55,463 nucleotides of DNA from contig JACRKA010000202.1 of assembly GCA_016219905.1 (NCBI GenBank), positions 1-55,463 on the forward strand, in the 5' to 3' direction. Below are positions 6,312 through 38,396 of the stretch, one piece after another (within the stretch, counting starts at the first letter, position 1; each line of letters starts with the position of its first letter). A program made the position numbers and the translations under genes. The notes under the pieces are model-generated. The model was given only the letters and a program-made list of their open reading frames with translations. It was not told the origin of the DNA and did not search any database. Source of the stretch: Verrucomicrobiota bacterium. GTDB taxonomy: Bacteria; Verrucomicrobiota; Verrucomicrobiia; CAIQCK01.

Positions 6312-6321
6312 CGGTGGTTGC

Positions 6322-6394
6322 CGTGAAACGTAAAACGTGAAACGTGAGGCAGACCGACCAGCCTTCACGTATTACGTTTCACGTTTTACGTTTT
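6322..6394. repeat. Imperfect long hairpin built from CGTRAAA heptads, between convergent genes (possible bidirectional terminator)
   Basis: Left arm 'cgtgaaacgtaaaacgtgaaacgtgagg' and right arm 'ccttcacgtattacgtttcacgttttacg' share the complementary core cgtaaaacgtgaaacgt. A T-rich run 'ttttatt' follows on the + strand. The right arm overlaps the last codons and stop (6386-6388) of the minus-strand gene. Confidence 0.6.
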
Positions 6395-7477
6395 ATTCTC
6401 GATGTGCGACCCCGGCCCCAGCGCATCAAGCTGGCCGGTGTCGAACTCCACCAGCAGGCCCAGCTTCACCAGCCCATCCACGTCGGCCTTCACATCCTGT
6501 TCGCTGGCGCCCTGGGCGGCGAAGTGGTCGCGGAGCGTGTGACGGTTCGGCTTGTGGCCGCGTCGGGCGGGCGCGGCGGCGAGCGCAAGCATCTCCTGCT
6601 GGCGTGGCGTGAGTTGGTCGCGGGGGCTGACGTGCCGCGGCCGGTAACGGCAGGCGAACTGGTGGCCGAGAATGTCGCGGAAAAGCTGGAGGCCCTTCTG
6701 GTTCAGCGCGTGGCGCAGCAGGGCAAGGAAGTGGCCGGGCGCCTTCTTCTCTTTGTCCAAAGCGTCGGTGCAGACGCGGCGCAGGTCGCGACATTCGAGT
6801 TGTTTCACCTGCGCGGCGTGGATGAGGAGTTCGTCCTCGGCCTTCGCGATGCGGTCGGCGTGGGCGCTCTTGAGGTGTTCGAGCGCTTCGCGGTCGTCGG
6901 CCAGGAGCTGGTCGCAGTGCGCGCAGTGGAGTTCCTCGATCACGCTGGCGGCTTTCCTCCACGCCTCGATCTCGTCGGGGAAACTGGAGTTGCTGACCCG
7001 GGCGCGGAACTCGTCGAACGGCACATTGTCGTGGCGGTCCTGATGGTGCCCGGCCAGTCTGGCCGTGAAGCCGTGGTAATTCGGCGGGCAGAGCAGCGCG
7101 CGGCAAAGGCCGCAGCGGGCGACGAACTGGAAGTTGCCCTTCGGCGGGTCAATCGCCTTCTCGACGGTCTTGACGGCCTGGGCGGCGTGCTCGTGCCGGA
7201 AATGGCGCAAGACCAGCTCGGCGGAGGTGAACGGCTGGCCGCACTCGGCGCAGGAGTGGAAGCGCGCCTTGGAATCCCTCTCCGGCTTCACGAGGAACGA
7301 GATCGCGTTGGGCTGGCCGACGAGGTTGCGCCAGAGGTCGAAGAGCGCGTGGGCGCGGCCGTCGGCCTTGAGGCGGTTGGCGAGCTTCTCGGCGACCGGC
7401 TCTTCGAGCCGCACGGTGCAGAAGACCGGGCGGTCGGCGGCGGCGGGCCTGGTTTGTTTGGCGTCTCGTGCGGCCAT
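6386..7477 (-). CDS. Hypothetical protein with C2H2-type zinc-finger-like motifs (363 aa)
   Basis: I take ATG 7477 (MAARDAKQTRPAA...) as the real start. The upstream 147 codons of track ORF 6386..7918 read through the repeat element and into the neighbouring gene. The protein has two canonical C-x2-C-x12-H-x4-H motifs: 'CAECGQPFTSAELVLRHFRHEH' (about 7187..7252) and 'CAHCDQLLADDREALEHLKSAH' (about 6860..6925). A degenerate third motif is 'CGLC...HHQDRH'. Confidence 0.7.
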   Translation of the reverse strand: MAARDAKQTRPAAADRPVFCTVRLEEPVAEKLANRLKADGRAHALFDLWRNLVGQPNAISFLVKPERDSKARFHSCAECGQPFTSAELVLRHFRHEHAAQAVKTVEKAIDPPKGNFQFVARCGLCRALLCPPNYHGFTARLAGHHQDRHDNVPFDEFRARVSNSSFPDEIEAWRKAASVIEELHCAHCDQLLADDREALEHLKSAHADRIAKAEDELLIHAAQVKQLECRDLRRVCTDALDKEKKAPGHFLALLRHALNQKGLQLFRDILGHQFACRYRPRHVSPRDQLTPRQQEMLALAAAPARRGHKPNRHTLRDHFAAQGASEQDVKADVDGLVKLGLLVEFDTGQLDALGPGSHIENKT

Positions 7478-7535
7478 GGATGGTGCGCGGCATTGTCGTT
7501 GAGCGGTCGCGCCAGTCAAGGAGAACTCTTGAGGA

Positions 7536-7694
7536 GAAATCCGAAATCCGAAACTCGAAATTCGAAACAAATCCCAAATCGAGAAAAGGCAAATGCCAGA
7601 ATAAGCCCTGATTCGTTGCCGGGAGTGCTTCCGAGGTTTCCTGTTTGGAACTTCGGATTTGTTTCGGGTTTCGAGTTTCGGATTTCGGATTTCC
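7536..7694. repeat. Long inverted repeat (about 45-bp arms, about 65-nt loop) built from GAAAYYC / CCGAAAT heptads; REP- or MITE-like hairpin element
   Basis: The left arm 7536..7583 is 'gaaatccgaaatccgaaactcgaaattcgaaacaaatcccaaatcgag'. The reverse complement of the right arm 7648..7694 is 'ggaaatccgaaatccgaaactcgaaacccgaaacaaatccgaagttcc'. There are only about 3 mismatches across the core. The element is AT-rich relative to its surroundings and lies between the radical-SAM stop (7708) and the zinc-finger gene start (7477). Confidence 0.75.
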
Positions 7695-7707
7695 GGCGGG
7701 ACGCCGG

Positions 7708-8913
7708 TCACATCCGCCAGCGACGCGCGTCGCCGGGCGCGCCGAGGAGCTTTCGCGCCTGGCGCCACGCGATGCGGGCCAGCCCGCCGGTGGTGGCGCG
7801 CATGGAGGTCCAGCGGTTGCACTCGTTGAAGCAGAGCGTGCAGGGTTTGGCGGCCATTTCGCTGCGGAACGCCCGCGCGGCGGGCGACTGCCAGAGCCGG
7901 CGCAGGTCGAAGCCGCACTCGCGGAGGTTGCCGAGCTTGCGGTCAAGCACGATGCACGGATAGACATCCCAATACGGGTCTATGTAACCGAGCGCCGTGC
8001 CGGCGAGGCAGCGCACGCCGCTGGCCGGGTCGCGCAGCCAGCCGAGATAGCTCTCGGTGTAATAGTTCCGCCCGAAGCCGGGATGCGTCTGTTGAAGCTC
8101 CGCGACGAGGGCGAGCAGTTCGTCGCGGGCGGTGACGGGCTGGAGGCCTTTCTCGTTCTGGTAGTAGTGCGCCGACGGCAGGGCGGACATGAAACCGATC
8201 TTGTGCGGCGGCACGCCCTGCGCGACGAGCCACTCGACGAACGCGGGGAACTCGCGGTAGTTGGCGGCGGTGAGCGTGCTGGAGATCTCGACGCGATAGA
8301 ACGGGTAACGCCGTTCCTGCTCGCGCGCCCACTGGAAGAGCCGCCACGCGCGGGCGAAGCCGCCGGGCGTGCCGCGGACGAGGACGTGCGTGGCTTCGAG
8401 GCCGTCGAGCGAGACGGCAAAGTTCCGCAGATGGCGGCCGGAGAGGCGCGAGAGCAGCGCGCCCTCGCGCTCGATGATGCGGTCGGTCTCGAGGGCGTTG
8501 GTGGCGCAACTGGTGCGGTGGCCGCGGCGGTCCATCGCGAGCCAGAACTCCTCGACGTCGTCGCGGTTGAACTGCTCGCCGCCGGTGGTGGCGACCTGGA
8601 TGAGCTGCGGGTTGGTGTCGAGGAACCGCTCGAACTCGGCGGGCGTCATCTCGCGCTGCGCCCGCTCCGGTTCCTTGCGATAGGTGGTCCAGATGCCGCA
8701 GTGGGTGCAGCGGCTGTCGCAGCGGTAGGTGACGCTGACGAGGAAGTGCGCGGGAAAAGCGGGCGACGGATCGGCCCCGCCGCCGGCGCAGCGGCGGAGG
8801 TCGTTGCGCAGGGCGGCGCCGAGCCAGCGCCGCCAGAGGCGCAGGCCGTCGCGGGCAAGGGTGTCAAGTGAACGTCTGATGGCTGCCTCGTGAGATGAAC
8901 TCGCCGGCATCAC
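7708..8913 (-). CDS. Radical SAM enzyme with C-terminal SPASM-like Cys cluster
   Basis: 401-aa track ORF with the CxxxCxxC motif in 'VSVTYRCDSRCTHCGIW'. C-terminal cysteines ('RCLAGT...YPCIV...CGF...KPCTLCFNECNRW') are consistent with an auxiliary Fe-S (SPASM or twitch) domain. Confidence 0.85.
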   Translation of the reverse strand: MMPASSSHEAAIRRSLDTLARDGLRLWRRWLGAALRNDLRRCAGGGADPSPAFPAHFLVSVTYRCDSRCTHCGIWTTYRKEPERAQREMTPAEFERFLDTNPQLIQVATTGGEQFNRDDVEEFWLAMDRRGHRTSCATNALETDRIIEREGALLSRLSGRHLRNFAVSLDGLEATHVLVRGTPGGFARAWRLFQWAREQERRYPFYRVEISSTLTAANYREFPAFVEWLVAQGVPPHKIGFMSALPSAHYYQNEKGLQPVTARDELLALVAELQQTHPGFGRNYYTESYLGWLRDPASGVRCLAGTALGYIDPYWDVYPCIVLDRKLGNLRECGFDLRRLWQSPAARAFRSEMAAKPCTLCFNECNRWTSMRATTGGLARIAWRQARKLLGAPGDARRWRM

Positions 8914-8950
8914 ACGCGCCCGGCGTCCGCTGAACGCCGGGACCGCGCGG

Positions 8951-11563
8951 TCATTTGGCCGGTTTCTTTTTCACCGGCGTGAACTCAACATCGGTGCTGA
9001 CCGGCGGCGCGTTGGTCTTGCCGGGGACGCGCTTGGTCTCGAGGACCGCCTGGGTGTCGCCGGCGGGGGCGGCCGGTTTGTCGCCGGGCGGCTCGGGCAG
9101 CGGCGCGGAGAGTTTGTCCCACTCGGCCTTCGCGTCGGGCGCGATCTTCGCGGCGTTGGCGGCGTAGGCGGCGGTGTATTGGGTTTGCTGGAGGTCGCGC
9201 GAGAGCCAGGCGAGCGCGACGAAGTTGGCGGCGCGGGCGGCCGGATTCTGGGCGTTGGTGATCTCGCTGTAGTAGGTCATCAGCGTGAGCATCGTGAGCG
9301 GGGAGAGGTCGGCCCATTTCTGGGCCGCCTCGCCGCCCGGCGTGGCAAACGTGACGCCGTTGTCATCGGCCTTGGTGGCGCTGCCGGCGAGGGCGGCGCC
9401 ACTTCGGTTGGTGAGGCCGGGGCGCGCGTAGGGCGTCTTGGCCATGTTCGCGATGATCAGCTTCTTCATCTCCACCATGCGCCGGTAGATGCCGGCGCGG
9501 TCGGCGGCGATCGGCTTGAGTTCAGGCGTCTCGATCTTGCCAGCGGCGTCATCGAAAGCCTTCGCGGCGGCGTCGAAGCTGTATTCGGCCAGCGCGGCGG
9601 TGGCGGCGGTGGCGGCGGCCTCAATCGCCTTCTTGCCGGCGGCGAACTGCTCTCGCTGTTTGACGGCGGGGTCCACTTTCTTTTCTTCCGTCTGCGCGGC
9701 GGCGGCCTTCTTGAGGTCTTCTTCGATGGACTTCACGCGCGCGAGCAGGATGGGGGTCTTGATCTGCTCGCCGAGACCTTTGATGATGTCGCCGGCCTGG
9801 TCCTCGTTGCCCGCAAGTCTCAACTTCGAGATGTCCGCCATGGCGTCGTTGATGACCTTCAGGTCGGCGGCGAGCCTGGTGGCGTCGGGCTGGAAGAGCG
9901 TGACCCACTTCGCGTCCTTGTCCTCCTTGGCCGCGACGTAGCCGTCCATCCATTTGCCCGCGTCCTTGAACTTGCCATCGGTCATCGCCTGCACGCCGAG
10001 GTAGAACTGGGCCAGCGTCCACGCCCACGGCAGTTGTTTTGCCAGCTTCGGCTGGACGGCAGGGAGCTTGAGGTCGCCGGCGAGGAGCTGGCCGAGGACC
10101 GGCGCGTAGTTGGATTGGAAGATCTGCTCGGGCAAGCCCGGCTTCTCCGCTGCGGCGGCCGCCGCCTTGAAGGCTTTCTTGGCCTCGGCGGCCTTGTCCT
10201 GGAGGTTGAGGGCGAGGCCAATCTGGCAGTCCAGCACGGGTCGCTTGGTTTTCTTGTCCTCAGGCACGGCCTCCCGGGCGCGGCGGTAACTGGTGACGGC
10301 GGCGGCATACTTGCCGTCCGCCAGCTTGCTGTCCGCATCAACCCACGCATCGAAGGCGGCGGGCCACGTGTCCACCGCCGCTTTGCCGGCCGGCTGGGCG
10401 GCGGAAGAAGCCGTGCGGTCGGCTTCGTCGTGCGATCCCCAGATGAGATGGCGGTAATGCCAGATGCCCCACGCCGTGGCGATGCAGCCGGCCAGGACCA
10501 GGACGGTGCCGATGACAGCCTTCAGCGTCACCGGAGGCGCGCCTTCCTTGGCGGCGATGACGCCGGCCTGCCTGGCTTTCAGCTTTTGCTTCTCGCCGGC
10601 GCGCTGCTCCGCGTGAACGATGGCCGCCTGTTTGGCCATCTGGAGTTCCTCGATCAACTCGTCGTAGGATTCGTGCCGCTCCTCGCGGGTCTTGCGAAGC
10701 ATCCGGCCGATGGCCTGCGCCGTGTCGTCGCAGATGTCGGGCGCGAACGTCTTCAGGGACAGGGCCGGCGTCTTCAAGTGCTTGAGCACCACCTCGGTGG
10801 CCGTGTCGGCCTCGAACGGCGCGCGCCCCGCCAGCGCGTGGAACATCGAGCCGCCCAGCGAGTAAATGTCGCTGCGAAAATCCTCCGGCTCGCCCGCCAC
10901 CTTCTCCGGCGCGATGTAATAAGGCGTGCCCCAGATGCCATCCTCCTCGCCCTTCTTCTCCTTCTCCTCGCCGGCGAACCGGGCCAGGCCGAAGTCCACG
11001 ACCTTCGCGTGCCCCTCGGCGTTGAAGAGGATGTTGCCCGGCTTGATGTCGCGGTGGATGACGCCCCGCTGGTGGGCGGCGCGCAACGCCGAGGCCACCT
11101 GGATGCCGATCTCCAGCGTCTCCAGTTCCGACACACGCTTGCGGGTCTCGATCTTGTGGTCGAGGCTGCCGCCCTCCAGCAGCTCCATGACGAGGTAATA
11201 CTGCTTGGCGATTTTTCCGAAGCTGAGGATCTGCGCGATGTTCGGGTGGTTCAGCGCGGCGGCGGCGCGCGCCTCGCGGGTGAAGTCCTCCACGAACTGC
11301 GGGTTGGCGGCCAGGTCCTTCTTCATCAACTTGACCGCCACATATCGCTGCAACGTCGAATCGAACGCCTTGTAAACCGTGCCCATGCCGCCGCTGCCGA
11401 GCGCGGTCAGGAGCTGGTAGTTGCCGATGATCATCGGCACCACCAGCACCGTCTGGCAGGAGGGGCATTGGGCCTTGCTGAACGGCTCCAGCTCCGTCAC
11501 GTCGAGGTGCTGGCCGCACTTCGAGCAGGCGATCTTGATTTTCTTGGCCGGGGCCTCTGGCAT
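8951..11563 (-). CDS. Ser/Thr protein kinase with N-terminal zinc ribbon, one TM helix and a large Ala/Lys-rich, TPR-like C-terminal domain (870 aa)
   Basis: Track ORF with a zinc ribbon 'CSKCGQHLDV...CPSCQTV'. Hanks kinase motifs are 'GSGGMGTVYKA', 'VAVKLMK', 'HRDIKPGNIL', 'DFGLA' and 'GTPYYIAPE'. A TM segment is 'VIGTVLVLAGCIATAWGIW'. Confidence 0.9.
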   Translation of the reverse strand: MPEAPAKKIKIACSKCGQHLDVTELEPFSKAQCPSCQTVLVVPMIIGNYQLLTALGSGGMGTVYKAFDSTLQRYVAVKLMKKDLAANPQFVEDFTREARAAAALNHPNIAQILSFGKIAKQYYLVMELLEGGSLDHKIETRKRVSELETLEIGIQVASALRAAHQRGVIHRDIKPGNILFNAEGHAKVVDFGLARFAGEEKEKKGEEDGIWGTPYYIAPEKVAGEPEDFRSDIYSLGGSMFHALAGRAPFEADTATEVVLKHLKTPALSLKTFAPDICDDTAQAIGRMLRKTREERHESYDELIEELQMAKQAAIVHAEQRAGEKQKLKARQAGVIAAKEGAPPVTLKAVIGTVLVLAGCIATAWGIWHYRHLIWGSHDEADRTASSAAQPAGKAAVDTWPAAFDAWVDADSKLADGKYAAAVTSYRRAREAVPEDKKTKRPVLDCQIGLALNLQDKAAEAKKAFKAAAAAAEKPGLPEQIFQSNYAPVLGQLLAGDLKLPAVQPKLAKQLPWAWTLAQFYLGVQAMTDGKFKDAGKWMDGYVAAKEDKDAKWVTLFQPDATRLAADLKVINDAMADISKLRLAGNEDQAGDIIKGLGEQIKTPILLARVKSIEEDLKKAAAAQTEEKKVDPAVKQREQFAAGKKAIEAAATAATAALAEYSFDAAAKAFDDAAGKIETPELKPIAADRAGIYRRMVEMKKLIIANMAKTPYARPGLTNRSGAALAGSATKADDNGVTFATPGGEAAQKWADLSPLTMLTLMTYYSEITNAQNPAARAANFVALAWLSRDLQQTQYTAAYAANAAKIAPDAKAEWDKLSAPLPEPPGDKPAAPAGDTQAVLETKRVPGKTNAPPVSTDVEFTPVKKKPAK

Positions 11564-26467: not shown

Positions 26468-26728
26468 ATGAAAACGCTGACCGTTCGCTTACCGGAAAAC
26501 CTCGTTTTGGATATCGAGGCGGAGGCGCGCCTTCGGAAGGTGCCGAAGTCCGATGTCGTGCGCGAGCGGTTGAGCCATGCGCCAACCCGCCCCAAGAGCA
26601 GGCAATCCAACGTCATGGACTTGATTGGCGACCTCATCGGCTCGGTGGCGGGCCTGCCGCCCGATTTGAGCGCGCGCAAGAAGCACTACCTGAAGGCGTC
26701 GGGCTATGGTCAAAACCGTCCTCGTTGA
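26468..26728 (+). CDS. vapB: Ribbon-helix-helix (CopG/VapB-like) antitoxin
   Basis: Track ORF 26447..26728. I prefer ATG 26468 (MKTLTVRLPENLVLDIEAEARLRKVPKSDVVRERL), which has a typical RHH N-terminus. It overlaps the downstream PIN gene by 23 nt. Confidence 0.7.
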   Translation: MKTLTVRLPENLVLDIEAEARLRKVPKSDVVRERLSHAPTRPKSRQSNVMDLIGDLIGSVAGLPPDLSARKKHYLKASGYGQNRPR

Positions 26729-27113
26729 TACGGGCTTTCTCGTCGCGCTCTTGAGCCGGGAAGACCGGCATCGTGCTTGGGCGGCCGCCCATGTGCCACA
26801 GCTTGGGCAGATCTGGGTGACATGCGAGGCCGTGCTTTCAGAAGCATTCCATTTGCTCGGCCCGGCGGGCGGATCGAAGCTCGCAGAACTGTTGCGGCGC
26901 GGGGTGGTAGTGCCGGGATTTGACTTGGGTGACGAGCTAGAGCCGGTCCTCAGCCTCATGGACAAATACAGCGATGTGCCGATGAGCATGGCCGACGCCT
27001 GCCTCGTGCGCATGACCGAAACGCTCGCCGATCCCGTCGTCGTCACCACCGACACCGACTTCCGCATCTACCGCCGCCACAGCCGGCAGGTCATCCCCTG
27101 CCTGATGCCGTAA
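26706..27113 (+). CDS. vapC: PIN-domain ribonuclease toxin (VapC family)
   Basis: 135-aa track ORF. 'VLVDTGFLVALL' carries the first acidic residue, followed by 'CEAVLSEAFHLL', 'MSMADACLV' and 'VVTTDTDF'. This is the classic PIN acidic-residue pattern. Confidence 0.85.
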   Translation: MVKTVLVDTGFLVALLSREDRHRAWAAAHVPQLGQIWVTCEAVLSEAFHLLGPAGGSKLAELLRRGVVVPGFDLGDELEPVLSLMDKYSDVPMSMADACLVRMTETLADPVVVTTDTDFRIYRRHSRQVIPCLMP

Positions 27114-29731: not shown

Positions 29732-29908
29732 ATGAAAGTGCGACTGGTTTCCGAGATCACGGTGCTGTGCATGGCGGTGGTTCTGGTGGGAACATGGCAG
29801 GGGTGGTTGGATGTGCCCGAGAGTGCGTTGATTGCGGCGACGATGTGTTTGGCCACAGCGCTGGCAATGTTGCTGCACAGCGCGTGGAGGAAGACGCCGA
29901 AGGAGTGA
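29732..29908 (+). CDS. Possible small membrane protein (58 aa)
   Basis: This is the tail of track ORF 29462..29908, from ATG 29732: MKVRLVSEITVLCMAVVLVGTWQGWLDVPESALIAATMCLATALAMLLHSAWRKTPKE, with two hydrophobic helices. I saw no clear RBS and no homology evidence. Confidence 0.3.
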   Translation: MKVRLVSEITVLCMAVVLVGTWQGWLDVPESALIAATMCLATALAMLLHSAWRKTPKE

Positions 29909-30003: not shown

Positions 30004-30513
30004 ATGCGCATCACCCGTCCCGTTGTCATCCTGCTGGCCGTGGGGGCCACGCTCGGTTTGTTTGCCATCAGCAAGAAACAGCCCGGCGCACCAGGTGCGA
30101 AGGCGGCGAAGGCCAAGCCCGCCGCCGTGGCCGGCGAAGGGCGCGACGCGCGCGCCGTGCTGGACAAGTTCGCGGCGTTGATCAACCAGCGCGACGCGGC
30201 GGGGCTGGAGGCGATGATCCACCGGCCGTTTTACGCTGACGGCAAGAAGTTCGAGGACGACCAGGAGCGCCGTGAGTTGATCGAGAAACTCACGCGCGAT
30301 GTCAACCTCCCGGTGACCATCGCCGAAGCCAAGGCCGTCACCTTGGCCGAGTCGGGCCTGCCGCCGGAGGCGGACCAGGTGTTGACGGCTGACGACTCCA
30401 TCTTCCTGACCGAGCTGCACGCAGGCGACCGCTCTGAAAGCCACACCGTTGTAGTGCGCAAGACCGAAGCAGGCTTTCGGATGCTGGCAATCGTCAAGAA
30501 TACCGCGCCCTGA
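30004..30513 (+). CDS. Hypothetical membrane-anchored protein
   Basis: 169-aa track ORF with GGAGAAAAACC upstream of the ATG and an N-terminal anchor 'MRITRPVVILLAVGATLGLFAI'. Composition is ordinary and I recognised no family. Confidence 0.6.
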   Translation: MRITRPVVILLAVGATLGLFAISKKQPGAPGAKAAKAKPAAVAGEGRDARAVLDKFAALINQRDAAGLEAMIHRPFYADGKKFEDDQERRELIEKLTRDVNLPVTIAEAKAVTLAESGLPPEADQVLTADDSIFLTELHAGDRSESHTVVVRKTEAGFRMLAIVKNTAP

Positions 30514-30605: not shown

Positions 30606-30621
30606 TGGCAACACACCTGCA
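30606..30621 (+). promoter_or_regulatory. Candidate sigma-54 (-24/-12) promoter upstream of the first TadE-like gene
   Basis: TGGCAACACACCTGCA matches TGGCAC-N5-TTGCW. The GG (30607-08) to GC (30619-20) spacing is the canonical 12 nt. The site lies 36 nt upstream of ATG 30657. Confidence 0.5.
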
Positions 30622-30656
30622 AGATGATATGAGGAATCCGTAGGTGGAAGAGTCCT

Positions 30657-31109
30657 ATGTTCTCAGTCAATCGAGCCATCCTGAAGATCCAACGCCGCGC
30701 GCCTCGTCGAATGAAAGCGCGCACCGTCATCCCCGCCCCAAGACCTCGCGGCCAGGCGCTGGCCGAGTTGGCCATCTTGCTGCCCGTGCTCATCATCCTC
30801 GTGCTCGGCGCGGCCGACTTCGGGCGGATCTACTACCACTTCGTGACCGTCGAGTCCGCGGCCGCCGCCGGTGTGCAATACGGCTGCGTGGACACCACCA
30901 AGGCTGCCGATACCGATGGCATCCGCCTCGCCGCGATGCGACAGGTCCAGGACATCACCAACCGCTCCGTCGTGGTCGTCAGCTCTCTGGTGACCAACAG
31001 CATCCTCACTGTCAACGTCAAGGCGCGGTTCGTCACCTTTTTCCACTGGCCGTTGATGCCCACCGACACGCTGGTCTCCCGCTCCGCCCAGATGCGGATA
31101 CTGAAGTAA
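30657..31109 (+). CDS. TadE-like pseudopilin family protein (E0)
   Basis: Track ORF with a pseudopilin N-terminus 'RGQALAELAILLPVLIILVLGAADFGR'. By eye it is about 70% identical to the TadE-like gene at 34129. GGTGGAAGAG lies upstream of ATG 30657. The alternative start ATG 30711 (MKARTVIPAPRPRGQALAEL) gives the same leader length as the paralogues. Confidence 0.8.
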   Translation: MFSVNRAILKIQRRAPRRMKARTVIPAPRPRGQALAELAILLPVLIILVLGAADFGRIYYHFVTVESAAAAGVQYGCVDTTKAADTDGIRLAAMRQVQDITNRSVVVVSSLVTNSILTVNVKARFVTFFHWPLMPTDTLVSRSAQMRILK

Positions 31110-31286
31110 GATCCGTTGCGCCCGCCTGCCGTTCAAAGCAGGACCGTCTTGCAACAATTGCTTGCGCTCTGCCAGCGGGCTATCGCGACGGATTGCGGAT
31201 TGGCGGCTTGCAGGTTGCGTGGTATGTTTTGCCAAACCAGCCGGGCCGATGAGGAAGCTGTCCCGGCTGGCCAAAGGATATTCGCG

Positions 31287-31766
31287 ATGAGAAACTGGAT
31301 TGCCGGCAAGCGCGGGGACTGCGTGGTGCGAAAAGGCCAGTCGCTGGTCGAGTTCGCCATCGCTCTGCTGGTGACGCTGCTGTTGGTTTTCGGGGCGGTG
31401 GAGATCGGGCGGGCGGTGTTCGCCTATAACACCGTCGCCAACGCCGCGCGGGAGGGGGTGCGTTACGCCATCGTTCACGGGGCCGACGCCCGCAGCGACG
31501 CACAGCTTGGCCCCACGTTGAACGATTCGCGCATGCAGAATCTCGTGCGCCGCTGGTGCATGGGGTTGCAGACGAACCTGGTCACCACGACCTGCGTGTG
31601 GACCAACGCGACCGGCGCGGTGCAGAACGCGCCGGGAGCCGCGGTGACGCTGCGGGTGAACTACACGTTTGTCCCGCTGGCCTTCGGGAGGAATTCGCAG
31701 TTTCCTAGCAACTACTTCTTCACCCTCCAGCTTCGCAGCACTTCCTCCGGCATCATCCTCAACTGA
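31287..31766 (+). CDS. TadE-like pseudopilin family protein (divergent type, Eb)
   Basis: This is the last 159 aa of track ORF 31116..31766, from ATG 31287 (MRNWIAGKRGDCVVRKGQSLVEFAIALLVTLLLVFGAVEIGRAVF...). It has the classical G|xxxxEF prepilin-like motif followed by a hydrophobic helix. Confidence 0.75.
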   Translation: MRNWIAGKRGDCVVRKGQSLVEFAIALLVTLLLVFGAVEIGRAVFAYNTVANAAREGVRYAIVHGADARSDAQLGPTLNDSRMQNLVRRWCMGLQTNLVTTTCVWTNATGAVQNAPGAAVTLRVNYTFVPLAFGRNSQFPSNYFFTLQLRSTSSGIILN

Positions 31767-32553
31767 CACGCCGCCGACGGCGAGTCATTGCCAGCACAGC
31801 CGCCCCGCCGGCCAACGCCAGGCCGGCTGACCCCGGTTCGGGAATCAACTGGATCATGAGCTTGTCCAGCCCGAACTCGTAGTTGACACCCGGATCGCCG
31901 GGGCCGGGCGCGATATAAGCGAACCCTGCGCCCGGCGCGACGCCGGTCGGCATGCCCGCCAGAAGCGTGTTGGTCGTGCTGCCTTGGACCGTGACGACGT
32001 TGAAAATCATCGCGTCCAGGTTGATCAGAAACTCGATGTTGGTGAACGCGCCCGCCTGGTATTCGCCGATTTCCGCGGACACGCCGAGCGCGTTCTCCAC
32101 GCGAAACTTCCCGTTGGCGCGGAAGTCCAGCGTGAGCTGGCTGCTGTCGGAGAAAGACAGGGGCATCCAGTTGGTGGTTGTCACAAGCCCGGCAGCGGCC
32201 AATTCCATCGCCACGCGCAAAAAGCCGTTGGTGGGCTGGTTGACGGCGTTGATTTGCGCGAGCAAATAGGCCGACGCGCTGTTCGTGGCGTTGAAGTAAG
32301 CGAACTTCGACGGGTTCCCCCACAGATTGTTGGTGATGGAAATGAACGAGGGCGAAGAGATCGCCGAGGCGGTGAAGTTCGTGGCGACCGGCAGGGGCAG
32401 CGGGCCGAGACTTGGTTCCAGGCCGATGGTTTCGTGTTCGAAGTCCACATTGAAGTAAATCGGCAGGAGGGCCTGCGCCGTCCACGGCGCCAACCCCAGA
32501 AGGAGGCTCGTGGCGAGTCCCGCACAGAACCTGCTCAATGACGTTGTCTTCAT
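31759..32553 (-). CDS. PEP-CTERM sorting-domain secreted protein
   Basis: Track ORF 31759..32565. I prefer ATG 32553 (MKTTSLSRFCAGLATSLLLGLAPWTAQA); GTG 32565 is the alternative. The C-terminus 'IPEPGSAGLALAGGAAVLAMTRRRRRVS' has PEP, a TM helix and an Arg cluster, which is the PEP-CTERM exosortase signal. Confidence 0.8.
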   Translation of the reverse strand: MKTTSLSRFCAGLATSLLLGLAPWTAQALLPIYFNVDFEHETIGLEPSLGPLPLPVATNFTASAISSPSFISITNNLWGNPSKFAYFNATNSASAYLLAQINAVNQPTNGFLRVAMELAAAGLVTTTNWMPLSFSDSSQLTLDFRANGKFRVENALGVSAEIGEYQAGAFTNIEFLINLDAMIFNVVTVQGSTTNTLLAGMPTGVAPGAGFAYIAPGPGDPGVNYEFGLDKLMIQLIPEPGSAGLALAGGAAVLAMTRRRRRVS

Positions 32554-32620
32554 CTCGATTTTCACGTTTGACCTGCGCGCTCGCGCATCTCCCGCCTATC
32601 ATATCCGTGCGACGCCCGCA

Positions 32621-32656
32621 AGCTTCGTCTGCAGCTTCGTCTGCAGCTTCGTCTGC
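32621..32656. repeat. Perfect 12-bp x 3 tandem direct repeat (AGCTTCGTCTGC) in a divergent intergenic region
   Basis: Read directly from the sequence as agcttcgtctgc agcttcgtctgc agcttcgtctgc. It lies between the PEP-CTERM gene start (32553/32565, minus strand) and the TadG-like start (32789, plus strand). Confidence 0.85.
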
Positions 32657-32788
32657 CGCGCCGCGGGATGGGGGCGCGCGTGGCCCGACCAGCCCACGCG
32701 CGGTGGCGGGGTGAGGGTTGTTGTGCCATATTCGGCCAGCATAAAGGAACAACCGAGACGCCGATGGCATAGGGAAGGGGGAAGCAGG

Positions 32789-34132
32789 ATGAAGCGACAT
32801 CCGCAAGAACGTTCGTTCGGGCAGGCGGCCCACCCGCAATCAGGGCAGATTCTGCCCGTGATCGCGTGCGTGCTGATCGCGATGGTCGCCATCCTGGGGC
32901 TGGTCATAGACGCCGGCATGATCCAGGCGAACCGCCGGCACGCCCAGCGGGCCGCGGACGCCGCCGCGCAAGCCGGCGCGCGCTGGCTGCTCAGCGGCAC
33001 CAACGCCGCCAACCGGCTGGCCGCCATCAGCGCCGCCCAACTCTACGCGGCACAGAACCTGATCCTCGCCAACAACGTCAGCGTCGAGATCCCGCCGACC
33101 AGCAGCCACTACTTCAACGGCAGCAACGGCTACGTCCGCGTGCTCGTCACCCGGCCCGTGAACACAACCTTCATGCGGCTGTTCCTGCGGCTGCCCACCG
33201 CCAACGTCGCCGCCTACGCCACGGCCGCCGCGGTCCCGGTGCCCATCCCGGTCACAATCCTGGCGCTGGATCCAACGGGCCGGGCGTCTTTGAAAATCAG
33301 CGGCGGCGGCACCCTGCGCGTGGTTGGGGGCGCGGTCCAGGTGGACTCCGGCAATGCCCAAGCCCTGTCGTTGGATGGCGGCGCGGAGCTTCAAGCCGAT
33401 GAAATCAACGTGGTCGGCGGCGCGAATAACCCCGATCAAGTCCAGGGGCCGCTCAACACCGGCGCTCCTTATTATCCGGATCCATTCATCGCGAAGGATC
33501 CGCCCGTGTTCATTGACCACAACACGGTTCGTTATGGCGACGGCGCCACCACCTCGAACGGCCAGCATGGCTCGTGGAACAACCCGAACACCTATAACAT
33601 CAATGGCGGCAACCACACTCTCGACCCCGGCATCTATTACGGCGGCATCAAGATCACCGGCGGCAACGTCACGATGCGCCCCGGCCGCTACGTCATGGCC
33701 GGCGGCGGATTCAGCGTGTCGGGCAACGGCACCTCGGTGTCAGGGACCGACCTTTTCATCTACAACACGAACGATCCCTTCGACCCCAAGGGCCAGGGGG
33801 CCTTTGGCGACATCAGCCTCACCGGCGCCGCCAACCTCCAGGCGCCCAACACCGGCGCCGACGCCTACTACAAGGGCTTGCTGTTCTTCAACGACCGCGA
33901 CCCGCTCAACACCACCACCGTCAAACTGGCCGGCCAGACGGTCTCCGGCAACGACTCTCCCTTGGTGGGCTTCGTCTATAGCGTCAACGGCCAGGTGCAG
34001 ATCACGGGCGGGGCCGGCAGCGCCGGCTTGGGCGTCGTCGCGTGGAACATCTCGATTTCCGGCGGCGGGACCTTGGGCGTCACCGACCCGACCCGGATTC
34101 CAGACGACAGAGCCGTGAGGTTGGTCGAATGA
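32789..34132 (+). CDS. TadG-like pseudopilin/pilus-associated protein, paralogue 1 (447 aa)
   Basis: Track ORF 32510..34132. I prefer ATG 32789 (MKRHPQERSF...), which is preceded by GGGAAGGGGGAAG. The N-terminus 'SGQILPVIACVLIAMVAILGLVIDAGMIQANRRHAQRAADAAAQAGA' is TadE/G-like. The beta-helix-like 'PGIYYGGIKITGGNVTMRPGRYVMAGGGFSVSG' is typical of TadG proteins. Confidence 0.8.
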   Translation: MKRHPQERSFGQAAHPQSGQILPVIACVLIAMVAILGLVIDAGMIQANRRHAQRAADAAAQAGARWLLSGTNAANRLAAISAAQLYAAQNLILANNVSVEIPPTSSHYFNGSNGYVRVLVTRPVNTTFMRLFLRLPTANVAAYATAAAVPVPIPVTILALDPTGRASLKISGGGTLRVVGGAVQVDSGNAQALSLDGGAELQADEINVVGGANNPDQVQGPLNTGAPYYPDPFIAKDPPVFIDHNTVRYGDGATTSNGQHGSWNNPNTYNINGGNHTLDPGIYYGGIKITGGNVTMRPGRYVMAGGGFSVSGNGTSVSGTDLFIYNTNDPFDPKGQGAFGDISLTGAANLQAPNTGADAYYKGLLFFNDRDPLNTTTVKLAGQTVSGNDSPLVGFVYSVNGQVQITGGAGSAGLGVVAWNISISGGGTLGVTDPTRIPDDRAVRLVE

Positions 34133-34521
34133 AAACCCAAAGCCTATTCCGACACCGTTCCGGCGGCCAGGCGCTCGCCGAGTTGGCGATCCTGCTGCCG
34201 CTCTTGATCATCATCGTGCTCGGCGCGGCCGACTACGGCCGGGTCTATTACCACTTCGTGACCATCGAGTCCGCCGCGGCGGCCGGCGCGCAATACGGCT
34301 GCGTCAGCACGACCAAGGCCGCCGACGCCAACGGCATCCGCCTCGCCGCCATGCGCCAGCTTCAAGACATCACCAACGCCAACCCCGTCGTGACCTCCTC
34401 CGTGAACAACAGCGTCCTCACCGTCAAAGTCACCGCCACCTTCTCGACGGTCCTCCACTGGCCCGGCATGCCCAACGGCGCCGTCATCACCCGCGGCACC
34501 CAGATGCGCATCCTGAAGTAA
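34129..34521 (+). CDS. TadE-like pseudopilin family protein (E1)
   Basis: Tail of track ORF 34042..34521. ATG 34129 overlaps the TadG-1 stop (ATGA). The N-terminus is MKTQSLFRHRSGGQALAELAILLPLLIIIVLGAADYGR.... Confidence 0.85.
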   Translation: MKTQSLFRHRSGGQALAELAILLPLLIIIVLGAADYGRVYYHFVTIESAAAAGAQYGCVSTTKAADANGIRLAAMRQLQDITNANPVVTSSVNNSVLTVKVTATFSTVLHWPGMPNGAVITRGTQMRILK

Positions 34522-34635
34522 CCCGCCCGCGCCGCGGCCAGAGAGCCGATCCGCGTTCCGCCGTCCCAGTCCGGCTTTGCGGACATGGCTGTCCTCAAGC
34601 CGCACTCTCCACGTTGCAACCTCATGGCCGCGAGC

Positions 34636-34651
34636 TGGCAACCGCCCTGCT
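34636..34651 (+). promoter_or_regulatory. Candidate sigma-54 (-24/-12) promoter upstream of TadG-like paralogue 2
   Basis: TGGCAACCGCCCTGCT has GG at 34637-38 and GC at 34649-50 (12-nt spacing). It lies about 72 nt upstream of GTG 34722. The leader is homologous to the one upstream of paralogue 3: both have CGAACAG exactly 45 nt before the start codon. Confidence 0.5.
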
Positions 34652-34721
34652 CTCCTTCGCAGAGAGGTTCATAATCCGAACAGACGGCGTGTCTGTCATC
34701 GTCGCCAACCGAGAGGTGAAT

Positions 34722-36062
34722 GTGAAGCAGACAAGAGGTTCCCCGAAGCTGCCCACCGCCCGAAAGTCAGGCCAGATGGTTGTCGCTGCCGCGTGCCTGA
34801 TGCTGGCCATGATCGCGGTCCTGGGCTTGGTCACGGATGTCGGGCTGCTTGAGTGCAGCCGTCTGCACGCGCAACGGGCCGCCGACGCCGCCGCGCAGGC
34901 CGGCGCGCGCGAACTGCTCATGGCCACCGGCGGCATATACGACGAGAACGCCGTCAGCGCCGCGCAAACCTACGCCCTCAAGAACGCGATTCTCTCCAGC
35001 AACGTGACGGTGGAGTTGCCGCCAACCACCAGCGCGCACTTCAACAGCAGCAACCGTTACGTGCGCGTGCATGTCAAGCTGCCGACGCGGACGACGTTCA
35101 TGCGGCTGTTCCTGCGGCTGCCGGTGGTCAACGTGGCCGCCGCGGCGACCGCGGGCGCGGTGCCCTCGCCGATCCCGGTGACGATCCTGACGTCCTCCCC
35201 CCATGCCCCGGCCGCCCTGAAGGTCAGCGGCGGCGGCACATTGAGGATCGTGGGCGGCAGCGTCTATGTGAACTCGGACGACGCGCAGGCGGCCTCGATT
35301 GACGGCTCGAGCACGGTCGAAGCGACGGAGTTCGACGTGGTCGGCGGCGTGGACCATCCCGACCAGATCCAAGGGACCGTGCTCACGGGGATGCTGGCGG
35401 AGTCGGACCCGTTCGCCCAGAGAGTCGCGCCGGAGTTCGTGGATGCCAGCGCGGTGCGTTATCCGGACGGCACGATGGGTTACATCTCGCCCACCAGTGG
35501 CGGCACGGCCTCCAAGCCCGCTTCCAAGAGCGTGAGCAGCGATACGACGCTCTATCCCGGCATCTATTACGGCGGCATCAAGATCACCGGCGGCAATGTC
35601 ACGCTCATGCCGGGCCGCTACATCATGGCCGGCGGCGGCTTCAGCGTCTCGGGCAGCGGCACCGGCATCTCCGGCACGGATGTGTTCTTCTACAACACGC
35701 AGGACCCCTACAGGACCACGGCCGCCGGCGCCTTCGCCGACATCAGCCTGACGGGCGGCGCGAATCTGTTCGCGCCCACCGCCGCCATTGACAGCTACTA
35801 CAAGGGCTTTCTCTTCTTCAACGACCGCAATCCCGACAACACCTCCACCATCAAGCTGGCCGGCCAGATGGCCGTGGGGGACTCCGCGCCCCTGAAGGGT
35901 TACATCTACTCCGCGAACGGCGACGTGCAGATCACGGGCGGCGCCGGCAGCGCCGGCCTGGGCGTCGTCGCAAAGACCGTCACCATCACCGGCGGCGGCA
36001 CTTTGGGTGCCATTGACAAGACCCGCATCCCCAACATGAACATCGTCCGACTGGTCGAATGA
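34722..36062 (+). CDS. TadG-like protein, paralogue 2 (446 aa)
   Basis: Track ORF 34614..36062. I prefer GTG 34722 ((M)KQTRGSPKL...) because GAGAGGTG lies upstream, the paralogue-3 start aligns with it (conserved 'VKQT'), and the predicted sigma-54 promoter lies inside the longer ORF. Confidence 0.8.
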   Translation: MKQTRGSPKLPTARKSGQMVVAAACLMLAMIAVLGLVTDVGLLECSRLHAQRAADAAAQAGARELLMATGGIYDENAVSAAQTYALKNAILSSNVTVELPPTTSAHFNSSNRYVRVHVKLPTRTTFMRLFLRLPVVNVAAAATAGAVPSPIPVTILTSSPHAPAALKVSGGGTLRIVGGSVYVNSDDAQAASIDGSSTVEATEFDVVGGVDHPDQIQGTVLTGMLAESDPFAQRVAPEFVDASAVRYPDGTMGYISPTSGGTASKPASKSVSSDTTLYPGIYYGGIKITGGNVTLMPGRYIMAGGGFSVSGSGTGISGTDVFFYNTQDPYRTTAAGAFADISLTGGANLFAPTAAIDSYYKGFLFFNDRNPDNTSTIKLAGQMAVGDSAPLKGYIYSANGDVQITGGAGSAGLGVVAKTVTITGGGTLGAIDKTRIPNMNIVRLVE

Positions 36063-36451
36063 GAACCTGCAAACACATCCGACAACTGCTCGACGGCCAG
36101 GCGCTGGCCGAGCTGGCCATCATCCTGCCCCTGCTCATCCTCCTGGCCCTCGGCGCCACCGACTTCAGCCGTCTTTACCACCACTTCCAAGCCGTCGAGT
36201 CGGCGGCTGCCGCCGGCGCGCAATACGGCTGCACCAGCGTCTCCCGGGCGGTGGACACCAACGGCATCTGGCAAGCCGCGATGGGCCAAGCCCAGGACAT
36301 CACCAACCGCCACCCGGTTGTGTCTTCATCGGTTGCCAGCAACATGATCAGCGTGACGGTGACGGCGACCTTCTCGACCTGCATCCGCTGGCCCGGCATC
36401 CCCAGTTCCACCACCGTCTCGCGGTCTGCGCAGATGCGCGTCCTGAGATAG
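36059..36451 (+). CDS. TadE-like pseudopilin family protein (E2)
   Basis: 130-aa track ORF with an ATGA overlap with the TadG-2 stop. Its N-terminus is 'DGQALAELAIILPLLILLALGATDFSR'. Confidence 0.85.
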   Translation: MRTCKHIRQLLDGQALAELAIILPLLILLALGATDFSRLYHHFQAVESAAAAGAQYGCTSVSRAVDTNGIWQAAMGQAQDITNRHPVVSSSVASNMISVTVTATFSTCIRWPGIPSSTTVSRSAQMRVLR

Positions 36452-36586
36452 CCGCCCCAAGCTGCGCCGCTGCCCGCCGCCCGCCGTGTTGCGGCCAAGC
36501 GCGGCCTCAATCCATCCATAGTCCACTACATGGACACCCCCATGCCCAAACGGCATGATGAAGCGCCGCGCCCCGCAGTCACAGGC

Positions 36587-36602
36587 TGGCAAGCGCTGTG
36601 CT
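36587..36602 (+). promoter_or_regulatory. Candidate sigma-54 (-24/-12) promoter upstream of TadG-like paralogue 3
   Basis: TGGCAAGCGCTGTGCT has GG at 36588-89 and GC at 36600-01 (12-nt spacing). It lies about 69 nt upstream of GTG 36670. Confidence 0.5.
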
Positions 36603-36669
36603 AATCCATGGCGGTGTCGAAGTTCGAACAGGGAGCGAGTCTGGCAGTCTGGGGAACGAAAGGGCGAAC

Positions 36670-38010
36670 GTGAAACAAACAAGTGGCTTCCTGAAACCGC
36701 TGGTGGCGCAGCGGTCGGGGCAGATGTTGGTGGTGGCGGCATGCCTGATGGTGGCAATGATCAGTTTCCTGGGCCTGGTCACGGATGTCGGGCTGATCGA
36801 ATGCAACCGCCGCCACGCGCAACGGGCCGCCGACGCCGCGGCGCAGGCCGGCGCGCGGGAACTGCTGGCCGGCGCCAGCAGCACCCACACCGCCAATGCG
36901 CTCAGCGCGGCGCAGAACTACGCCTTCCAGAACGCCATCCTTGCCGGCAACGTCACTGTGGAACTGCCGCCGACCACCAGCGCGTATTTCAACGGCAGCA
37001 ACCGTTTCGTGCGCGTGCATGTCGTCCGGCCGACCAACACCACCTTCATGCGGCTGTTCCTGCGCCTGCGGACAGCCAATGTCACCGCCAGCGCGACGGC
37101 CGGCTCCGTGCCCAACCCGATCCCGATCACAATCCTGGCGCTGGATCCCAGCGCTTCGGCCGCGTTGAAAGTCAGCGGTGGCGGCACGCTGCGCATCGTC
37201 GGCGGCAGCGTCTATGTGGACTCCAACAGCGATGTGGCCGCTTCGATTGACGGCGCCTGCACCGTCGTGGCGACCGAATTCGACACGGTGGGCGGGGTGG
37301 ACCATCCCGATCAGATTGAGGGAACCGTCGCCACGGGCGTCGGGGTGGAGCCGGATCCCTTCGCGTCGAAAGTCGCGCCGGTGATTGTCAACAGCAGCAC
37401 CGTGAGTTACCCCGACGGCACGACCGGCAGCACCTCGCCCTCCAGCGGCGGCACCGCCACCAAGCCCGCCTCCAAGATGGTGAGCGGCGACACCACGCTT
37501 TATCCCGGCATCTACTGGGGCGGCATCAAGATCACCGGCGGCAACGTCACCCTCATGCCCGGCCGCTACATCATGGCCGGCGGCGGCTTCAGCGTCTCCG
37601 GCAGCGGCACCGGCATCACAGGCACCGATGTTTTCTTCTACAACACACAGGATCCCTACAAGACCACGGGCGCTGGCGCGTTCGCGGACATCAACCTCAC
37701 CGGCGGCGCCAACCTGCTCGCGCCCACTCTCGAAGCCGACGGCTATTACAAAGGCTTCCTGTTCTTCAACGACCGCAATCCCGCCAACAACACCGTCATC
37801 AAACTGGCGGGCCAGATCGCCGTCGGCGATTCCGCGCCGTTGAAAGGCTACCTCTACACCGCCAACGGCAGTGTGGACATCAGTGGCGGCTCCGGCAGCG
37901 CCGGCCTCGGCGTGGTGGCCAACACCATCAAAGTCACCGGCGGCGCCACCTTGGGCGCCATTGACAGAAACCGCATCCCGAGCATCCCCATCGTCAGACT
38001 GGTCGAATGA
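36670..38010 (+). CDS. TadG-like protein, paralogue 3 (446 aa)
   Basis: Track ORF 36598..38010. I prefer GTG 36670 ((M)KQTSGFLKP...), which is preceded by GAAAGGG. It has the same length as paralogue 2 and is collinear with it. Confidence 0.8.
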   Translation: MKQTSGFLKPLVAQRSGQMLVVAACLMVAMISFLGLVTDVGLIECNRRHAQRAADAAAQAGARELLAGASSTHTANALSAAQNYAFQNAILAGNVTVELPPTTSAYFNGSNRFVRVHVVRPTNTTFMRLFLRLRTANVTASATAGSVPNPIPITILALDPSASAALKVSGGGTLRIVGGSVYVDSNSDVAASIDGACTVVATEFDTVGGVDHPDQIEGTVATGVGVEPDPFASKVAPVIVNSSTVSYPDGTTGSTSPSSGGTATKPASKMVSGDTTLYPGIYWGGIKITGGNVTLMPGRYIMAGGGFSVSGSGTGITGTDVFFYNTQDPYKTTGAGAFADINLTGGANLLAPTLEADGYYKGFLFFNDRNPANNTVIKLAGQIAVGDSAPLKGYLYTANGSVDISGGSGSAGLGVVANTIKVTGGATLGAIDRNRIPSIPIVRLVE

Positions 38011-38396
38011 AAACCAACAATCATAATCCACGGCACTCCGGCCAGGCGCTCGCCGAGATGGCCATCATCCTGCCTCTGCTGCTCCTCATCGCCCTCGGTG
38101 CGACAGACTTCAGCCGCCTCTACTCCCACTTCATGGTGGTCGAGTCGGCCGCAGCCGCGGGCGCGCAATTCGGCTGTATCAGTCCCGCCAAGGCAACCGA
38201 TACCGATGGCATCAGGCGCGCCGCCATGGCCCAAGCCCAGGACATCACCCAACGCCACCCGGTCGTGTCCTCCTCCGTCGCCAACAACATGCTCAGCGTG
38301 ACCGTCACCGCGACCTTCGCGCCCTGTGTCCCCTGGCCTGGCATCCCCCACTCCACCACCGTCTCGCGCTCTGCCCGGATGCGCGTCCTGAGGTGA
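38007..38396 (+). CDS. TadE-like pseudopilin family protein (E3)
   Basis: 129-aa track ORF with an ATGA overlap with the TadG-3 stop. Its N-terminus is 'SGQALAEMAIILPLLLLIALGATDFSR'. By eye it is about 75% identical to E2. Confidence 0.85.
   Translation: MKTNNHNPRHSGQALAEMAIILPLLLLIALGATDFSRLYSHFMVVESAAAAGAQFGCISPAKATDTDGIRRAAMAQAQDITQRHPVVSSSVANNMLSVTVTATFAPCVPWPGIPHSTTVSRSARMRVLR

Follow-up and report, generated by a model that had tools for sequence, protein, structure and literature searches.

Tandem TadG/TadE minor-pilin gene pairs on a Verrucomicrobiota contig: a candidate repertoire of alternative tips for a Tad pilus

What would a bacterium do with eight minor-pilin genes that stand far from any pilus machine? 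This question is raised by contig JACRKA010000202.1 (assembly GCA_016219905.1) of a soil- or water-type Verrucomicrobiota bacterium. The window analyzed here is the whole contig, which is 55,463 bp long and has about 65% G+C. Between 30.7 and 38.4 kb it carries eight pilin-like genes, every one on the + strand, which encode five TadE-family and three TadG-type proteins as judged by Pfam. A preliminary description, made from the DNA letters alone, had located these eight genes, and it had suggested, among other possibilities, that they supply interchangeable tip or adhesin modules to a machine encoded elsewhere. Our analysis confirmed the genes and found this suggestion to be the best supported: the same family is present in the tad operons of relatives, and there is a precedent in Myxococcus. 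We consider it probable that these genes provide a set of alternative tip complexes (priming or adhesin complexes) for a Tad pilus (Flp, type IVc) encoded at another place in the genome.

The assignment of the proteins to the TadE and TadG families was checked with Pfam profiles, and all eight proteins scored above the gathering scores. The five small proteins matched PF07811 (TadE) with 42-51 bits and E-values of about 1e-11 to 1e-13 (gathering score 22.9). TadG1, TadG2 and TadG3 matched PF13400 (Tad, TadE/G-like) with 39.4, 30.1 and 42.3 bits, respectively (E 6e-7 to 1e-10; gathering score 22.3). In NCBIfam, no family was above cutoff for the cluster proteins; the TadG proteins gave sub-threshold matches to TIGR03816 only (18-19 bits vs a cutoff of 51), and the TadE proteins gave none. 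The first gene encodes TadE0 (30711..31109, +), a small TadE pilin of 132 amino acids with the leader MKARTVIPAPRPRG↓QALAEL, where the arrow marks the leader site (PF07811 E 8e-11). The second encodes TadEb (about 31287..31766, +), a longer TadE-family pilin of about 159 amino acids with the leader ...RKG↓QSLVEF (PF07811 E 1.4e-13). TadEb is single copy and stands at the position of TadF; its start is most likely at 31287. Three gene pairs follow, in each of which a TadG-type pilin with a predicted beta-solenoid head is coupled to a small TadE pilin. These are TadG1 (32789..34132, +; 447 amino acids; PF13400 E 8e-10) with TadE1 (34129..34521, +; PF07811 E 3e-11), TadG2 (34722..36062, +; 446 amino acids, GTG start; E 6e-7) with TadE2 (36059..36451, +; E 4e-12), and TadG3 (36670..38010, +; 446 amino acids, GTG start; E 1e-10) with TadE3 (38007..38396, +; E 7e-11). 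Database gene calls give 446, 446 and 447 amino acids for the TadG proteins, 130, 130 and 129 for TadE1-3, and 132 for the first TadE. The starts proposed earlier agree with these calls for TadG1-3 and TadE1-3. The start of TadE0, on the other hand, is at 30711 and not at 30657, because the database gene call gives 132 amino acids.

The three TadG+TadE units are arranged head to tail, and in each of them stop and start overlap in the same junction. Its sequence, TGGTCGAATGARAAC, is present exactly three times in the window, at 34122, 36052 and 38000, where none is expected by chance. It sets the ATG of TadE over the TGA of TadG, giving an ATGA overlap for TadE1 at 34122-34136. This bears out the head-to-tail amplification and the common translational-coupling junction that had been noticed before. 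The cassette period is 1927-1948 nt, and the cassettes are 70-79% identical in DNA. TadG paralogs are 59-75% identical: TadG1 is 59-60% identical to TadG2 and TadG3, and TadG2 and TadG3 are 75% identical to each other. The TadE copies are 58-79% identical, with TadE3 and TadE2 at 79% in the tblastn alignment and 74% by BLASTP; TadE0 is closest to TadE1 (70% identical), and TadEb is just 32% identical to the other TadE copies. Because TadG and TadE co-diverge, G2/G3 and E2/E3 being the closest pairs, it was the two genes together that duplicated. The ratio of nonsynonymous to synonymous substitution rates (dN/dS) is 0.28-0.49 for TadG and 0.34-0.59 for TadE, values that are rough since dS is probably underestimated in a genome rich in G+C at third codon positions (GC3). 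All open reading frames (ORFs) are intact. The most variable stretch of TadG is residues 198-276, inside the head, and residues 277-316 are 80% invariant. The copies are maintained old paralogs, neither fresh duplicates nor decaying ones. We rejected gene conversion and silent-cassette antigenic variation of the pilE/pilS type, because the cassettes are full length with their own starts, share 70-79% DNA identity, and have no long identical tracts and no inverted repeats. Just before TadE0 (30697-30714), the codons ARLVE-stop and an ATGA overlap look like the junction between a TadG C-terminus and a TadE start. A deleted fourth TadG 5′ of TadE0 was also rejected, since the likeness to the junction is confined to five codons and the ATGA overlap, and stops abound in the frame upstream. 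At best, a lost fourth TadG has left a short relic here.

Where, then, is the machine? Pfam scans of about 45 further ORFs of the window found housekeeping or unrelated genes and no Tad machinery. Searches by tblastn with Flp, RcpC, secretin, TadZ, TadA, TadB and TadC of a relative gave no match in the window, and the sole match of a hidden Markov model (HMM) of Flp built from relatives was the common leader motif of the TadE genes. The statement that no gene of the Tad machinery lies in these 55 kb is borne out by all three approaches. Linkage to tadA/tadB/tadC, rcpA and flp, which the window lacks, is found for family members at five loci of relatives (L001, L010, L007, L016 and L018).

Scans of genome and metagenome contigs with the TadG alignment returned at least 6 loci each, and they give context, not a census. 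Close TadG homologues (41-65% identity) were found in Verrucomicrobia metagenome-assembled genomes (MAGs) only. One of these MAGs, GCA_016222825.1, has three loci. The first, L001, is a complete operon, flp-flp-DUF362-RcpC-secretin-TadZ-TadA-TadB-TadC-TadG-TadG-TadE, with the TadG family at its distal end. The second, L002, lies on another contig and is an orphan TadG-TadE-TadEb cassette beside his genes, and the third, L004, carries the head domain alone. The earlier assumption that tadE, tadF and tadG are always single-copy genes in tad loci does not hold for the complete operon L001, which already has two TadG paralogs. In L010, the family stands inside a tad locus. At least two TadG genes, accompanied by several TadE genes and one for Flp, are present in each of L011 and L003, with no TadA within reach, and L009 is a single orphan TadG+TadE cassette. 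L012/L013 is a tandem TadG-TadE-TadG-TadG array; a contig end cuts off one of its sides, non-tad genes stand on the other, and the array is the nearest analogue of that in the window. More distant members (about 30% identity) were seen in a tad operon of Dehalococcoidia with TadEb-TadG (L007) and on two unclassified metagenome contigs; one of these has TadA-TadB-TadC followed by a canonical TadE-TadEb-TadG (L016), and the other a tad operon with TadEb-TadG (L018). TadEb homologues lie between TadE and TadG in L016, before TadG in L007 and L018, and after TadG-TadE in L002, L003 and L011.

An exhaustive HMMER search matched 4,308 cluster representatives (clusters at 50% identity) at E≤1e-3 and 1,303 at E≤1e-10, and most of the best 150 of the 4,308 are full-length proteins of 400-450 amino acids. 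Therefore, the TadG-type family is widespread, not rare. By its HemB, which is 90-92% identical to MAG proteins, the contig belongs to Verrucomicrobiia. Loci L020-L022, whose HemB is 89-90% identical, have gene neighbors that differ from those in the window, and HemB synteny is therefore uninformative on the array. We also observed a DUF362 gene between the flp genes and rcpC in Verrucomicrobial tad loci (L001 1208-2263; L010 13219-14235). No gene for an A24-family prepilin peptidase was called in the L001 or L010 locus. Another orphan cluster of the Verrucomicrobia type (L023 1-8243) contains a beta-solenoid TadG+TadE, four more TadE-family genes, a Sel1-repeat protein and a vWA-type TadG, so different head types coexist in one array.

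The N-termini of the proteins connect them to the Tad class of pilins. All five TadE-type proteins have the leader site G↓Q(A/S)L(A/V)E with Glu at +5 (RG↓QALAEL, KG↓QSLVEF), and the Flp pilins of relatives have KSG↓QSLVEY, also with Glu at +5. Because these leaders agree, they represent the same class of prepilin peptidase site, predicted to be of the TadV/CpaA type. The three TadG proteins have SG↓QMVVA, with Ala at +5 and without Glu5. In type II secretion, the subunit that lacks Glu5 is the tip-capping minor pseudopilin GspK. By analogy, Ala at +5 in TadG would be as expected of a capping subunit and not of a body subunit.

Structures were predicted for one protein of each kind. The AlphaFold2 monomer model of TadG2 (predicted local distance difference test, pLDDT, 88.5; predicted template-modeling score, pTM, 0.77) has a long N-terminal pilin helix at residues 16-64 and a second helix, followed by an all-beta body, which is a beta-solenoid. 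The beta-helix-like core that had been suspected in TadG is thus supported by the model, and the head has no close solved relative. With this model, the top match of Foldseek in the PDB was ComZ of Thermus thermophilus (6qvi; E 1.2e-3, template-modeling (TM) score 0.24, 11% identity). Further matches were ice-binding proteins, PL3 pectate lyases, TibA/Ag43 and tapirins, all of them weak. Foldseek gave nothing meaningful for the TadG2 model against viral structures or for the TadE2 model against the PDB, and sequence searches of the PDB with the TadG and TadE family profiles gave no match. The AlphaFold2 model of TadE2 (pLDDT 79) has a helix at 11-57 and a three-stranded sheet (87-93, 96-106 and 117-127). 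By this model, TadE2 is a minimal pilin with the predicted small pilin fold.

The head may also have a wider distribution. The C-terminal region of TadG2 gave no match to DUF7305 (PF23981) even at E≤1. A distant TadG homologue (P0024, 31% identity) scored 25.4 bits on DUF7305 in the equivalent C-terminal region, where the gathering score is 27, and DUF7305 is also found behind a PilX_N leader in P0040. DUF7305 is a beta-rich domain on both TadG-type and PilX_N-type pilins, whereas the TadG proteins of the window do not match it themselves. As a separate observation, L004 (10001-10627) encodes the beta-solenoid head region alone without a Tad leader, and four metagenome proteins (P0040, P0042, P0044 and P0059) have a beta-solenoid head behind a PilX_N leader, that of type IVa minor pilins, instead of a Tad leader. 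This suggests that the head module is common to different classes of pili.

We also looked for signs of separate expression of the units. The motif TGGCA-N7-TGCW has the spacing of the -24/-12 promoter consensus of sigma-54. It matches four times in the window, where 0.89 matches are expected on both strands. The first sigma-54-like element, TGGCAATGTTGCTGCA (29862..29877, +), lies 127 nt upstream of a gene referred to here as ORF169, in the intergenic region between radC (-) and ORF169. The second, TGGCAACACACCTGCA (30606..30621, +), is 90 nt upstream of the start of TadE0. The other two, TGGCAACCGCCCTGCT (34636..34651, +) and TGGCAAGCGCTGTGCT (36587..36602, +), are 71 nt upstream of TadG2 and 68 nt upstream of TadG3, respectively. 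All four elements are on the + strand and intergenic, and their four upstream spacers make up less than 1% of the two-strand sequence. A fifth element was found in L012 (5499-5514), 53 nt upstream of the first TadG there. This suggests separate, enhancer-dependent control of the units from candidate promoters, as judged by the consensus match. In scans for sigma-70 promoters and terminators, the counts did not differ from those in shuffled sequence.

How might such a cluster work? The motor, the secretin, the major pilin and the prepilin peptidase of the Tad pilus would be supplied from elsewhere in the genome. From each cassette, one large TadG-type pilin and one small TadE pilin would be made in a fixed proportion by translational coupling. 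TadG and TadE of the same cassette, probably together with the single TadEb, which is probably common to all cassettes, would form a small complex, in analogy to KilL/M/N and CpaJ/K/L; the translational coupling of TadG with TadE supports such a complex indirectly. This complex may seed polymerization of the pilus and stay at its distal end, where the beta-solenoid head would be exposed as a contact surface. One machine could then be fitted with different tips, given that there are three diverged heads and that two of these are preceded by sigma-54-like elements of their own.

Several points weigh against this model. The contig has no Tad machine, no Flp pilin and no prepilin peptidase, and it is from relatives only that we would expect a Tad machine in the genome of this organism. 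There is one TadF-position gene for three cassettes, and the region upstream of TadG1 is without a sigma-54-like element in the TGGCA-N7-TGCW scan; because of these two features, the picture of three independent tips is not symmetrical. The matches of the TadG head to ComZ and to other beta-solenoids are weak (E≥1e-3, TM about 0.24), and the roughness of the dN/dS values, mentioned above, belongs here as well. The cassettes could instead be redundant duplicates of ordinary TadG/TadE priming pilins, which would serve the start of assembly or dosage and have no distinct specificity or regulation. The strong conservation of the pilin helix and of the beta-solenoid core (80% invariant at residues 277-316) fits such redundancy, and the two TadG genes in the L001 operon suggest that duplication may be a neutral habit of this lineage. 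However, with 59-75% identity the copies are old, purifying selection still acts on them, they diverge mainly within one part of the head, promoter-like elements of their own precede cassettes 2 and 3, and several relatives retain multi-copy arrays. Moreover, the paralogous tips of Myxococcus are only partly redundant (PMC12075869). For these reasons, simple redundancy seems rather unlikely to us. It is also conceivable that the TadG proteins, instead of being pilus tips, act as enzymes or binding proteins with a beta-helix, similar for instance to polysaccharide lyases, and that a Tad or type II-like machine exports or displays them by means of their pilin-like anchor, with TadE working as a short pseudopilus piston. 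PL3 pectate lyases, tapirins and autotransporter beta-helices are among the Foldseek matches, and the neighbors of this organism are rich in glycan-degrading genes. These matches are weak, though (E>0.01, TM≤0.24), and neither Pfam, NCBIfam nor the PDB sequence search revealed a catalytic family. In addition, the best structural match, ComZ, is itself a pilin, and the cassettes are not accompanied by secretion substrates or type II secretion genes. An enzymatic or export role of this kind is improbable.

The remaining explanations concern the machine. According to the preliminary description, the pilin-like proteins might build a surface structure of their own that is independent of a Tad machine. 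The absence of machinery on the contig, and nothing else, speaks for this idea, and we found no support for it: in relatives, the family is embedded at the distal end of tad operons, and the leader motif is that of the relatives' Flp pilins. Pilins of type IV filaments require a prepilin peptidase, a platform protein and an ATPase. An independent structure is therefore very improbable. The opposite idea is that a tad operon is located immediately beyond the window and that these genes simply form its usual distal part, as the family closes tad operons in L001, L010, L016 and L018; this had been named beforehand as a finding that would overturn the orphan status of the cluster. The array, however, lies in the middle of the contig, with 30 kb to its left and 17 kb to its right before the contig ends. 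Its flanking genes are lpxA and radC directly upstream and hrpB and a ComM-like Mg-chelatase gene directly downstream, on the opposite strand, and no tad gene lies between the array and the contig ends. Adjacency to a tad operon is thus refuted, and misassembly of the contig alone could rescue it. This explanation is hardly credible. Overall, a repertoire of alternative tips for a Tad pilus remains the reading that we favor.

The surroundings of the array add some details. ORF169 (30004..30513, +) encodes a membrane-anchored protein directly upstream of the pilin genes and has no match in Pfam or NCBIfam. Its homologue in L009 (4434-5867) is 47% identical over 138 amino acids, has an insertion of roughly 300 amino acids and lies directly upstream of the orphan TadG+TadE cassette there. 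ORF169 may be a conserved neighbor, or an unrecognized accessory gene, of the cassettes. TadEb is separated from TadG1 by a gene that the preliminary description had missed (31759..32565, -). It encodes a protein with a PEP-CTERM sorting signal (PF07589 E 0.006, which is below cutoff; weak NCBIfam PEP-CTERM matches), and its stop overlaps the stop of TadEb by 8 nt. We considered it as a member of the system and rejected it, as it is without a homologue in any related locus; it is probably unrelated to the pilin cluster. In the divergent intergenic region between this gene and TadG1, a 12-nt sequence, AGCTTCGTCTGC, is repeated perfectly three times in tandem (32621-32656). Elsewhere in the window there are genes for transporters, hemB, a Ser/Thr kinase, DUF1080 proteins and a PAS-GAF histidine kinase. 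Beside a gene for an 870-amino-acid Ser/Thr protein kinase there is one for a radical SAM/SPASM maturase (7708-11563, -), and upstream of this pair there are two ORFs without known family (5310-7918). The pair is unrelated to the pilin cluster, as is a lone PIN-domain (VapC-like) gene at 26694-27113 (+). An open frame of 980 codons (1-2940, -) continues past the left contig end; its coding bias is strong (GC3 0.91), and it has no Pfam match.

If the cluster does encode alternative tips, the principle of exchangeable minor-pilin tips, which has so far been shown only in predatory Myxococcota, would extend to Verrucomicrobiota, an abundant and mostly uncultured environmental phylum. In the papers found by a literature search that paired Verrucomicrobia with the Tad/Flp pilus, this phylum was not mentioned. 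Our results also point to another widespread head domain, a TadG-type pilin with a beta-solenoid, for which about 4,300 clusters were counted at 50% identity. Together, the tandem arrangement and the candidate sigma-54 promoters make a simple, testable model of tip choice. The practical value will be limited until a genome or an isolate ties the cassettes to a working Tad machine, and the significance would grow with proof that the heads are substrate-specific and are regulated separately. A bolder version of the model goes in this direction. The three heads would be substrate-specific glycan- or particle-binding modules, possibly lyase-like, at the tip of one Tad pilus, and each cassette would be switched by a sigma-54 promoter and a dedicated enhancer-binding protein according to what is available. 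We regard this version as speculative and unlikely. If it is true, a polysaccharide-degrading Verrucomicrobium could choose which polymer or surface is grabbed by its pili, and a programmable-tip system would exist in a non-predatory environmental phylum.

Is the arrangement new? It had been thought to be undescribed, and this claim does not hold as stated, because the Tip clusters of Myxococcus xanthus and cpaL of Caulobacter crescentus precede it. Orphan and multi-copy cassettes also recur in related Verrucomicrobia MAGs. In the Kil Tad-like pilus of M. xanthus, four paralogous TadE/F/G-like kilL/kilM/kilN clusters encode interchangeable Tips, and only one of the four is in a kil machinery cluster (Herrou et al. 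2025, PMC12075869). The same study proposed TadEFG proteins as tips in other bacteria too, and it found tip1-4 to be restricted by sequence to Myxococcota (PMC12075869). Orthology of the window genes to kilL/kilM/kilN is therefore unlikely, and the resemblance is a functional and architectural one. In both systems, there are several paralogous TadE/F/G-like sets, most of them away from the machinery, that are proposed to be interchangeable; in the window, these are three TadG+TadE sets, an extra TadE and the TadF-position gene within 55 kb. Both have a large TadG-like member with a variable C-terminal head that is proposed to be at the far end of the pilus. They differ in that the Kil sets consist of three genes and are dispersed in the genome, whereas here two-gene TadG+TadE pairs stand in tandem with one common TadF-position gene. 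The head of the Kil Tips is a helix/beta-scaffold without an analogue in the PDB, in contrast to the beta-solenoid predicted here. Furthermore, the Kil system belongs to Myxococcota, is tied to predation and to a type III secretion system (T3SS*) and is backed by genetics, whereas the window belongs to a Verrucomicrobium and its tips are a prediction from sequence.

Other known systems share single features with the window array. In C. crescentus, the orphan gene cpaL encodes a large minor pilin of the vWA type that is comparable to TadG and works with the Tad pilus, and at the tip, CpaL is predicted to come together with CpaJ and CpaK (PMC12607857). Thus, a large minor pilin encoded outside the main pilus cluster and predicted to act with two small minor pilins at a Tad tip is a common feature. 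CpaL is single copy and has a vWA (MIDAS) head linked to mechanosensing, whereas the TadG of the window is triplicated and has a predicted beta-solenoid head and no vWA. In the canonical arrangement of the Aggregatibacter/Pseudomonas type, tadE-tadF-tadG are single copy and directly adjoin tadA-D, in contrast to the five TadE-type and three TadG-type genes of this window, whose 55 kb contain no machinery. The competence pilin ComZ of T. thermophilus has a beta-solenoid insert and is proposed to be at the pilus tip (PMC6561018). With ComZ/PilA2, the putative tip complexes share a pilin fold with a large beta-solenoid, a small partner pilin and a proposed location at the tip. ComZ differs in that it belongs to a type IVa system and is implicated in DNA uptake; its structural match to TadG is weak, and no sequence relationship to TadG was detected. 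In summary, what is new here is the tandem head-to-tail layout, the coupled two-gene unit with one common TadF-like gene, the predicted beta-solenoid head, the phylum and the candidate control by sigma-54.

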